In this document: positions 63,493 through 63,688 of the stretch, in pieces | How positions within the stretch are numbered: the first letter of the stretch is position 1 | Layout: every line of letters begins with the position of its first letter | Assembly: GCA_003660235.1 (NCBI GenBank) | Contig: QGON01000065.1 | Span: 87,897 to 151,896, forward strand | Direction: 5' to 3' | DNA: 64,000 nt | Source of the DNA: a bacterium endosymbiont of Escarpia laminata | Lineage (GTDB): Bacteria; Pseudomonadota; Gammaproteobacteria; Chromatiales; Chromatiaceae | Made by a program: the position numbers and the translations under genes | The notes under the pieces: generated by a model | What the model saw: the letters and a program-made list of their open reading frames with translations, nothing else | Database searches by the model: none | Told to the model about the DNA's origin: nothing

Positions 63493-63510
63493 TGTCAGGA
63501 AATTCCTACA
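63493..63510 (+). promoter_or_regulatory. GacA/UvrY/LetA binding box
   Basis: TGTCAG-GAAATT-CCTACA against consensus TGTAAG-N6-CTTACA (10/12), about 55-72 nt upstream of the proposed sRNA start. Confidence 0.7.
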
Positions 63511-63564
63511 GAAATCCCGGAATTTTCCCGCAGATATAACTCGGTTCAAATGCCATGATTAAAT

Positions 63565-63688
63565 TGTCGCCGTAAGGACATTATGGATGACACCAAGGCG
63601 CACGGATGCAGCAGGGATTGAAACATTTGCCAACCAAGCAGGGCGACATCGCCCCGGCTCTCACGGATCAGGGAGCCGGGGTTTTTTC
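63565..63688 (+). ncRNA. CsrA/RsmA-sequestering small RNA (RsmY/RsmZ-like)
   Basis: About 124 nt, six ANGGA motifs, 5' TGTCGCC pairs with GGCGACA, and an 11-bp terminator stem followed by TTTTTT. Confidence 0.8.
63651..63688 (+). terminator. Intrinsic terminator of the Rsm-like sRNA
   Basis: CCCCGGCTCTC-ACGGATCA-GGGAGCCGGGG-TTTTTT. Confidence 0.85.

Follow-up and report, generated by a model that had tools for sequence, protein, structure and literature searches.

The window analysed here is a stretch of 64,000 nucleotides from the bacterial endosymbiont of the tubeworm Escarpia laminata (contig QGON01000065.1, positions 87,897 to 151,896). Near its end, a 286-bp gap separates a DUF1015 gene (62140–63381, minus strand) from the 3' end of folK (HPPK; stop codon at 63668–70, minus strand). 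An initial annotation had placed an RNA gene between these two genes, which Pfam indeed calls as the neighbours. The locus raises two questions: does the gap hold a gene of its own, and what would its product do? Positions 63566 to about 63688 of the plus strand very probably constitute an independently transcribed small RNA (sRNA) gene of the Csr/Rsm class, whose product of about 123 nt would act as a sponge for CsrA under the control of a Gac box. The locus agrees with each of the five sequence criteria by which Kulkarni et al. 2006 (PMC1488887) recognise sRNAs that regulate CsrA. The earlier assignment to the RsmY/RsmZ/CsrB class is supported by the points that can be computed, namely these five criteria, covariation, a box at a fixed position, the presence of partner genes, and sibling genes elsewhere in the genome.

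The predicted sRNA gene and its promoter

The motifs, the hairpin, the terminator and the promoter box described earlier were all found in their places. The features of the locus are as follows.

63493 to 63510, plus strand: GacA/UvrY-type box TGTCAGGAAATTCCTACA, 18 bp, at −73 to −56 from the predicted +1 (G63566)
63551 to 63559, plus strand: predicted extended −10, with TG at 63551–52, one base, and CATGAT at 63554–59, taken from the family promoter alignment
63566 to 63688, plus strand: predicted sRNA, about 123 nt, +1 at G63566 ± 2, 3' end in the U tract at 63683–63692, 125.8 bits with the covariance model R1
63566 to 63571, plus strand: 5' strand of the closing stem P1, GUCGCC, pairing with 63642–47
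63574 to 63617, plus strand: body with four ANGGA motifs, presumed CsrA-binding sites (AAGGA 63574–78, AUGGA 63583–87, ACGGA 63602–06, AGGGA 63613–17)
63626 to 63639, plus strand: single-stranded core UUUGCCAACCAAGC, the best-conserved block of the family, predicted to be largely unpaired
63642 to 63647, plus strand: 3' strand of P1, GGCGAC, pairing with 63566–71
63651 to 63692, plus strand: intrinsic terminator, consisting of a hairpin (63651–63682) with a 12-bp stem and the GGA-containing 8-nt loop ACGGAUCA, followed by the U tract UUUUUCUUUU
63663 to 63667 and 63670 to 63674, plus strand: fifth and sixth ANGGA motifs, ACGGA and AGGGA

All six ANGGA motifs counted earlier in about 120 nt are present, and about 0.8 would be expected by chance rather than the 0.5 first estimated. 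The genome-wide density of A(N)GGA gives an expectation of 0.81 per 130 nt, and six or more occur in 42 of 65,374 non-overlapping 130-nt segments (0.06%). Dinucleotide shuffles of the sRNA contain 0.83 ANGGA on average, and none of 5000 reaches six. ANGGA is the informative count here; bare GGA is uninformative in such shuffles (3.6 expected, P = 0.07) because dinucleotide shuffling preserves GG and GA. GGA density was also tried by itself as a genome-wide sRNA detector and rejected, since the richest segments of the genome are Glu-rich coding repeats; a box matrix and a covariance model were therefore used instead.

The predicted unpaired probabilities of the six GGA sites are, in order, 0.73, 0.44, 0.91, 0.49, 1.0 and 0.0. 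The third site lies in the previously described hairpin gcACGGAUgc, found as GCACGGAUGC at 63600–63609 within a stem-loop spanning 63598–63612. The sixth is sequestered within the terminator stem, in its 3' arm, and its conservation does not extend to other genera. The terminator is as strong as had been claimed, with 9 G-C pairs among its 12 bp. Of the 7-bp closing stem proposed earlier, six conserved base pairs stand; the seventh (U63565–A63648) falls upstream of the predicted +1.

According to a very different reading, which is extremely improbable, there is no RNA gene at all, and the locus is a bidirectional terminator with chance motifs between convergent or divergent genes, or else a small-protein gene. 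A 33-aa open reading frame does run across the predicted sRNA (63606–63707), and the terminator hairpin overlaps the folK stop codon. This overlap is confined to the 3' arm of the terminator and the U tract, which cover the last folK codons in antisense, so that the gene is otherwise intergenic. On the minus strand the hairpin is not followed by a U tract, and the terminator works in the plus direction only. The element also recurs in different gene neighbourhoods in other genera, its indels are not multiples of three, its helices co-vary, and its box is kept at a fixed distance.

The initial annotation had located the box, as TGTCAG-N6-CCTACA, at about −72 to −55. The 18-bp box is present, and its position is −73 to −56. 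A family box with the consensus TKTMRGAWWWTTCCTACA is found in 30 of 30 promoters from different genera, and in each of them its end lies 55 ± 1 nt ahead of the base just before GUCGCC. Alignment of the family promoters upstream of GUCGCC reveals the pattern TGn-(C/T)AnnnT, in which A−11 and T−7 are invariant. Six bases separate this extended −10 from the G of GUCGCC, the predicted +1. No good −35 stands beside the predicted −10, a weakness that fits an activator-dependent promoter, and a consensus scan for a canonical sigma-70 promoter at the locus found none. Five other box-bearing genes of the same genome (family B, described below) all carry TATATT at box end + 43 nt, where the window gene has CATGAT; this identical register independently supports the −10 assignment.

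Two other promoter readings were rejected. The conserved TGGCA has the wrong spacing for a sigma-54 −24 element and lacks a −12 GC, and the AT-rich TATAGC/TTAAAT block, taken as the −10, would move +1 into P1, whose pairs co-vary. At 63529–63536, and at the corresponding places in relatives, there is a short (C/T)ACA(G) element, about 20 nt past the box and near the −35. It resembles a third CCTACA half-site and could be a weak −35 or an additional activator contact.

The sRNA family, its siblings and the Csr/Gac pathway

The sRNA is carried by 7 of 7 other genomes of the genus with 89–91% identity, and weaker matches occur in other genera. Ten copies from six genera share one architecture: the box, a promoter of about 55 nt, GUCGCC, and four to five GGA amid divergent sequence. 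The 3' part consists of an invariant UUGCCAACCA(AGC) block, GGCGAC and the terminator with its loop GGA. The R1 covariance model finds matches in 76 of 121 Sedimenticolaceae genomes (53 of 83 genera), often in 2–5 copies and sometimes in tandem. Across 37 copies, 97.6% of the pair cells hold standard pairs and 11 of 17 pairs show double substitutions; 500 shuffles all fall short of these values, and the signal is lost when the partner strands are slid against each other. Compensatory changes occur across the family in both helices. P1 is paired in 100% of cells in the 37 sequences, with GUCGCA/UGCGAC and GUCGUC/GACGAC as compensatory variants, and in the terminator 9 of 11 stem pairs are affected. 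Full-length members retain 5–8 GGA (mean 6.0) while their flanks diverge, and the GGA in the terminator loop is present in 35 of 35.

Beyond the family Sedimenticolaceae, a class sample of 400 genomes yielded one other family with a clear member (genome G144) and one doubtful case (G320). The remaining weak covariance-model matches in this sample (E about 1e-4) were discarded as terminators only. An exact-pattern scan of named genomes identified the sRNA in Sedimenticola spp., the endosymbionts of Lamellibrachia and Escarpia tubeworms, the gill symbiont of Solemya velesiana and Ca. Sedimenticola endophacoides. It was also found in metagenome-assembled genomes (MAGs) labelled Sedimenticolaceae, Chromatiales and "Chromatiaceae", as well as in two Cycloclasticus MAGs. 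The Sedimenticolaceae carriers comprise free-living Sedimenticola and sulfur-oxidising symbionts whose hosts are tubeworms, lucinids and Solemya. The window itself occurs in DNA runs that are invertebrate metagenomes. Searches with Rfam models were negative for the window region (E ≤ 10), for 15 diverse family members (E ≤ 1), and for the paralogue and the family-B genes described below. This agrees with the earlier suggestion that the RNA lies outside the named families and is probably a new member. Judged by its sequence, the sRNA is a new family that is essentially confined to the Sedimenticolaceae.

Tandem arrays of three to four sRNA copies, each with its own box, were noted at G128:C1:216591–217334, G065:C1:630048–630450 (L052, L058) and G077:C14:3871–4533. 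The last copy in these arrays is degenerate: it is 107 nt long and has neither the CCAACCAAGC core nor the terminator-loop GGA.

It had been proposed that a genome scan with the box and the GGA pattern be used to look for paralogues. A box matrix built from other genera only and scanned over the symbiont's own genome returns 9–12 sites of at least 19.6 bits against a background of at most 18 bits, and the window box scores 22.2 bits. Seven of these sites precede GGA-rich, terminated RNAs, giving seven box-bearing sRNA genes: the window locus, one paralogue and five genes of an unrelated family, here termed family B. The six genes outside the window are located as follows.

C6:54818–54951, minus strand: paralogue of the window sRNA (locus L129), 85.7 bits with R1, own box at C6:55006
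C39:809–1100, plus strand: family-B sRNA gene
C5:32880–33120, plus strand: family-B sRNA gene
C53:58084–58330, plus strand: family-B sRNA gene
C53:59418–59650, plus strand: family-B sRNA gene
C53:93107–93329, minus strand: family-B sRNA gene (the family-B genes make up loci L125–L128)

Family-B RNAs are about 170 nt long and share with the window sRNA the same box; they have a TATATT −10, 5–7 GGA, and a terminator of the form GCCCGC-CCAGGGAUUGG-GCGGGC with a GGA in its loop. Each genome of the genus holds 1–5 copies, and the family is restricted to the genus, as no DNA-similarity match was obtained outside it.

The matrix scan also brought up two near-perfect palindromic boxes, TGTCGGAAAATTCCTACA at C33:19657 (L130) and TGTCGGAATAATCCTACA at C18:35218 (L131), both between divergent protein-coding genes. 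The genes beside them include one for a secreted protein with a lamin-tail-like N-terminus. It is possible that these two boxes mark direct GacA targets other than sRNAs.

The partners that such a system would need, csrA and gacA/gacS, were to be sought in the genome and are all encoded there. A single csrA gene of 63 aa lies downstream of lysC on contig C11. There is one clear gacA/uvrY orthologue, with 51% identity to UvrY (31% for the next best), in the gene order gacA-udg-uvrC-pgsA known from Pseudomonas and E. coli. The genome also encodes a BarA/GacS-like hybrid kinase of full length, the clear best match to its model, as well as hfq and rne.

Several observations weigh against a Gac-controlled CsrA sponge. 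No Rfam Csr/Rsm model (RsmY, PrrB_RsmZ, RsmX, CsrB, CsrC) matches the sRNA. The mean predicted unpaired probability of the family's GGA triplets is 0.55 against an average of 0.45, a modest excess. GacA and BarA score below the NCBI equivalog cut-offs, with 272.6 against 280 bits (NF007018) for GacA and 668 against 890 bits for BarA, the latter cut-off being tuned to E. coli. Each half-site of the box departs by one base from TGTAAG-N6-CTTACA as established by experiment, and the left half-site is degenerate (TTCAGA) in many members, so that another NarL-type regulator may be involved. The RNA data are Logan assembled contigs, which give neither strand nor transcript ends. In the only runs that contain a close relative, the sRNA region is part of a long flat contig with a depth of 45 or forms an 83-nt adapter-flanked insert with a depth of 58, against 31–41 beside it; the csrA leader is covered far more deeply in these runs. 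The low depth might be due to size selection of the libraries. The tandem sRNA array of a relative likewise lies within flat long contigs, and the family-B locus is rearranged in the relative that has RNA runs. In sediment metatranscriptomes, relatives of the sRNA are covered by short contigs of high depth that have no upstream coverage but run past the terminator.

The box sequence bears on the identity of the activator. The family half-sites (TGTAGG-N6-CCTACA) have the same layout as the UvrY/GacA reference consensus TGTAAG-N6-CTTACA (PMC3171408), with G instead of A at half-site position 5. This deviation, together with the presence of at least seven further NarL-type regulators in the genome, would suit a response regulator other than GacA, in which case the RNA might be a CsrA sponge or another sRNA responding to a different signal. 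Such an arrangement seems unlikely. The 18-bp palindromic layout and the AT-rich spacer are those of Gac systems, as is the distance of about 65 bp to the small GGA-rich RNA genes downstream, and the genome has a single clear gacA orthologue in conserved synteny.

In the favoured Gac-controlled sponge, phosphorylated GacA would bind the 18-bp box at −73 to −56 and activate the weak extended −10 promoter, with GacS/GacA driving all seven sRNA genes. In the transcript, the 6-bp closing stem would hold a body with four A(N)GGA, and the terminator loop would add a fifth GGA. These sites would bind CsrA dimers and titrate CsrA off its target mRNAs, as RsmY, RsmZ and CsrB do. Each RNA would offer four to five exposed GGA sites, and the capacity of the system would be supplied by the number of genes.

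Complementarity of the sRNA core to the csrA leader

The best-conserved block of the sRNA is the core UUUGCCAACCAAGC and not any of the GGA sites. Allowing at most one mismatch, its complement has a single match in the whole genome, which is on the sense strand of csrA, 87 nt upstream of the ATG. The csrA leader of the symbiont, GCUUGGUUGGUAAA (contig C11), can form 14 contiguous pairs with the core, one of them G.U, and in the window's genus the complementarity reaches about 20 pairs by extending over the 3' strand of P1. The leader element GCUUGGUUGG(C) lies at about +19 to +32 of the csrA leader in the genus, and the sRNA site at about +61 to +74. Family-wide, the region 64–134 nt upstream of csrA contains GCTTGGTTGG, either exactly (chance 2.4e-4 per leader) or as a matching variant. 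The balance of these observations tilts towards the Gac-dependent sponge RNAs of the Sedimenticolaceae being dual-function molecules, which would titrate CsrA and also pair, through the core (G)CCAACCAAGC, with the csrA leader element.

A helix of at least 10 bp between a genome's own sRNA core and its csrA leader is present in 24 of 30 genera. In a held-out test, with the criterion fixed beforehand, 12 of 14 fresh sRNA-positive genera passed (threshold 60%). Among nine held-out sRNA-negative genera, the exact motif was found in none and the one-mismatch motif in two (G086 and G089), which at 22% is just above the 20% line. The motif is present in 0 of 26 csrA leaders from genomes of other families without the sRNA; the one outgroup genome that does carry a true member, G144, shows 13 matching bp between core and leader, with variant flanks of its own. 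Duplexes of own pairs average −34.3 kcal/mol and cross-genome pairs −31.3 kcal/mol, and none of 20,000 permutations reaches the observed mean; like all core–leader statistics given here, this ignores phylogenetic kinship. The duplexes were calculated with 24–34 nt seed segments, as RNAduplex on whole RNAs gave meaningless long duplexes. Shuffles, cross-pairs, outgroups and the held-out set served as controls; a reversed-leader control was not clean because GGUUGG is nearly palindromic in reverse. Six sRNA-positive genomes have no good leader match, and some of them have several csrA copies. The paralogue of the window sRNA has the core UUUGCCAACCACAACC, with which 11 pairs to the csrA leader are still possible.

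Compensatory differences between core and leader were found in G055, G056, G066, G068, G104 and G144. With a conserved, unpaired seed and a co-varying complement in a candidate target mRNA, the RNA shows the sequence pattern of trans-acting base-pairing sRNAs. The sequences of five of these genomes are as follows.

G056: sRNA core CCAACCAAAC, csrA leader UUUGGUUGG
G055: sRNA core CAAGCCAAGCC, csrA leader GGCUUGGUUUG
G066: sRNA core GUUACCAACCAG, csrA leader CUGGUUGGUAAC
G068: sRNA core CCCAACCAAGCGC, csrA leader GCGCUUGGUUGGG
G104 (with a G-C pair): sRNA core CCCGACCAAGCGC, csrA leader GCGCUUGGUCGGG

It is possible, if rather unlikely, that the RNA is a pure sponge without any RNA–RNA pairing and that the match between CCAACCAAGC and GCTTGGTTGG reflects a double-stranded transcription-factor site shared by the two genes, or some other constraint. 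At the DNA level, compensatory changes between two RNAs look identical to parallel changes in two copies of one site. In addition, two to four genera have the leader motif with no detectable sRNA (G041 and G052; with one mismatch, G086 and G089), and a search for a partner sRNA in G041 and G052 found none. Against a shared DNA site stand the orientation, since in about 40 genera the two transcripts invariably carry the match in antisense to each other, and the location inside both transcripts, the sRNA copy being in the single-stranded, best-conserved segment. The differences are mostly G.U-compatible (about six to seven events against two A.C), and one position passes through the series A-U (most genera, such as G011), G.U (G060, G082) and G-C (G104). 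Moreover, the flanks past the 11-bp match co-vary to 15–17 bp in G058, G084, G090 and G131.

The conservation of the core may also be read in the opposite direction, with the RNA being primarily an Hfq-type base-pairing sRNA that acts on the csrA message and perhaps on others, and with the GGA motifs being incidental or recruiting CsrA as a chaperone. The seed is more conserved than any single GGA, hfq is encoded in the genome, and four to five accessible GGA sites make a low-capacity sponge. Against this stand the roughly 7-fold enrichment of ANGGA, the retention of 5–8 copies in every member despite turnover, and the invariable GGA in the terminator loop. A GacA-type box drives sponge RNAs in every studied gammaproteobacterium, and RsmY and RsmX of Pseudomonas are similar in size and number of sites. 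A primary role as an Hfq-type sRNA is improbable, slightly more so than control by a regulator other than GacA.

The RNA contigs bear on whether the complementary site is transcribed. In a tubeworm RNA run, a contig over the csrA leader of the symbiont itself (L001:1679–1761) has a depth of 1539, against 86 upstream, and its start precedes the motif by about 20 nt. A contig from lucinid-type metatranscriptomes, with a depth of 1230, begins 24 nt ahead of the leader motif of the corresponding genome. These starts, 20–24 nt ahead of the motif, indicate that the site lies within the transcribed csrA leader.

In the same tubeworm run, the leader contig with the seed-complementary site (1539) is three times as deep as the contig of the csrA coding region (470). 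This excess could reflect a stable 5' leader fragment or attenuation, and is only a hint, contig depth being a poor measure. A separate observation concerns the region directly downstream of csrA in the relative G065 (L168:1700–1800). There, contigs starting about 10 nt past the csrA stop codon reach depths of 10^5 in four lucinid-type metatranscriptomes. Many contigs from different contexts run into this stretch, which therefore resembles an RNA element present in several copies and at extreme abundance. It matches neither a tRNA nor any Rfam model, and it could inflate estimates of csrA expression in lucinid-type data.

For the dual-function reading, the most likely scheme is one in which RNAs of the GUCGCC family, besides sequestering CsrA, pair with the 5' part of the csrA leader and so close a direct RNA-level feedback loop on csrA. 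In the window's genus, this pairing would open both the 5'-terminal hairpin of the csrA leader and the closing stem of the sRNA itself. Possible effects include stabilisation or destabilisation of the csrA mRNA, a change in leader structure, altered access of Rho, and coupled decay of the sponge.

Relation to known Csr/Rsm systems

In many Gammaproteobacteria, the Gac/Csr cascade serves as the principal switch between lifestyles. It has so far not been described for the chemosynthetic symbionts that inhabit tubeworms, lucinid clams and Solemya. The majority of these symbionts cannot be cultured, and no CsrA antagonist has so far been annotated in them. In one member of the Sedimenticolaceae, csrA is the most highly expressed gene in hospite (PMC13137333; also PMC12172469). 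Candidates for the missing antagonists are now supplied in the form of a family-wide sRNA and seven box-bearing genes in the genus, along with a covariance model, a promoter matrix and candidate direct GacA targets. With them, a switch between free-living and symbiotic life could be tested both on metatranscriptomes that already exist and on Sedimenticola cultures. Should the pairing of seed and leader prove functional, it would represent new wiring in a textbook circuit, since the sponge RNA would act on the message of the very protein that it sequesters.

The closest parallels are RsmY, RsmX and RsmZ of Pseudomonas (RF00195, RF02144 and RF00166) and RsmY and RsmZ of Legionella, which, like the window sRNA, are about 110–130 nt long and present A(N)GGA in loops or unpaired segments, including the terminator loop. 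An intrinsic terminator, an 18-bp palindromic box of the GacA/LetA type, a weak −35, several paralogues and the genes gacS, gacA and rsmA (csrA) are shared as well. The window sRNA differs from them in having no detectable homology in sequence or structure, in its own GUCGCC/GGCGAC stem and UUUGCCAACCAAGC core, and in half-sites that read TGTAGG rather than TGTAAG. Complementarity to the csrA leader is likewise not described for the Pseudomonas and Legionella RNAs (PMC7652899). The same 2020 review of Csr systems presents the autoregulation of csrA as translational repression combined with indirect transcriptional activation, and does not mention pairing between a sponge and the csrA message (PMC7652899).

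CsrB and CsrC of E. coli and the CsrB-type RNAs of Vibrio and Shewanella (RF00018, RF00084), which titrate CsrA under BarA/UvrY, resemble the window sRNA in the five criteria (PMC1488887) and in the UvrY box (PMC3171408). They are 250–420 nt long with 13–22 sites, whereas the window sRNA has about 123 nt and five to six sites and apparently gains its capacity through the seven box-bearing genes.

A comparably large gene set exists in Azotobacter vinelandii, where RsmZ1-7 and RsmY form a group of many GacA-dependent Rsm sRNA genes per genome, some of them in tandem, as in the window's genus. They belong to a different sequence family and have no reported pairing with the rsmA message. A precedent for the combination of functions is provided by McaS and GadY of E. 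coli, which bind CsrA via GGA and carry a base-pairing seed, as proposed for the window sRNA (cf. PMC10729762); unlike it, they belong to the Hfq sRNAs, have different main targets and do not act as sponges under Gac control. We know of no dual-function sRNA of this kind that pairs with a csrA leader, and of no report of CsrB, CsrC, RsmX, RsmY or RsmZ pairing with the csrA message. What is already known is the kind of RNA, a sponge under a Gac box; what is new is the sequence family. It stands out further through its host lineage, the chemosynthetic symbionts, through the size of the set of Gac-box sRNA genes, and through the conserved seed that co-evolves with the csrA leader and that would add a variation to the known circuit.

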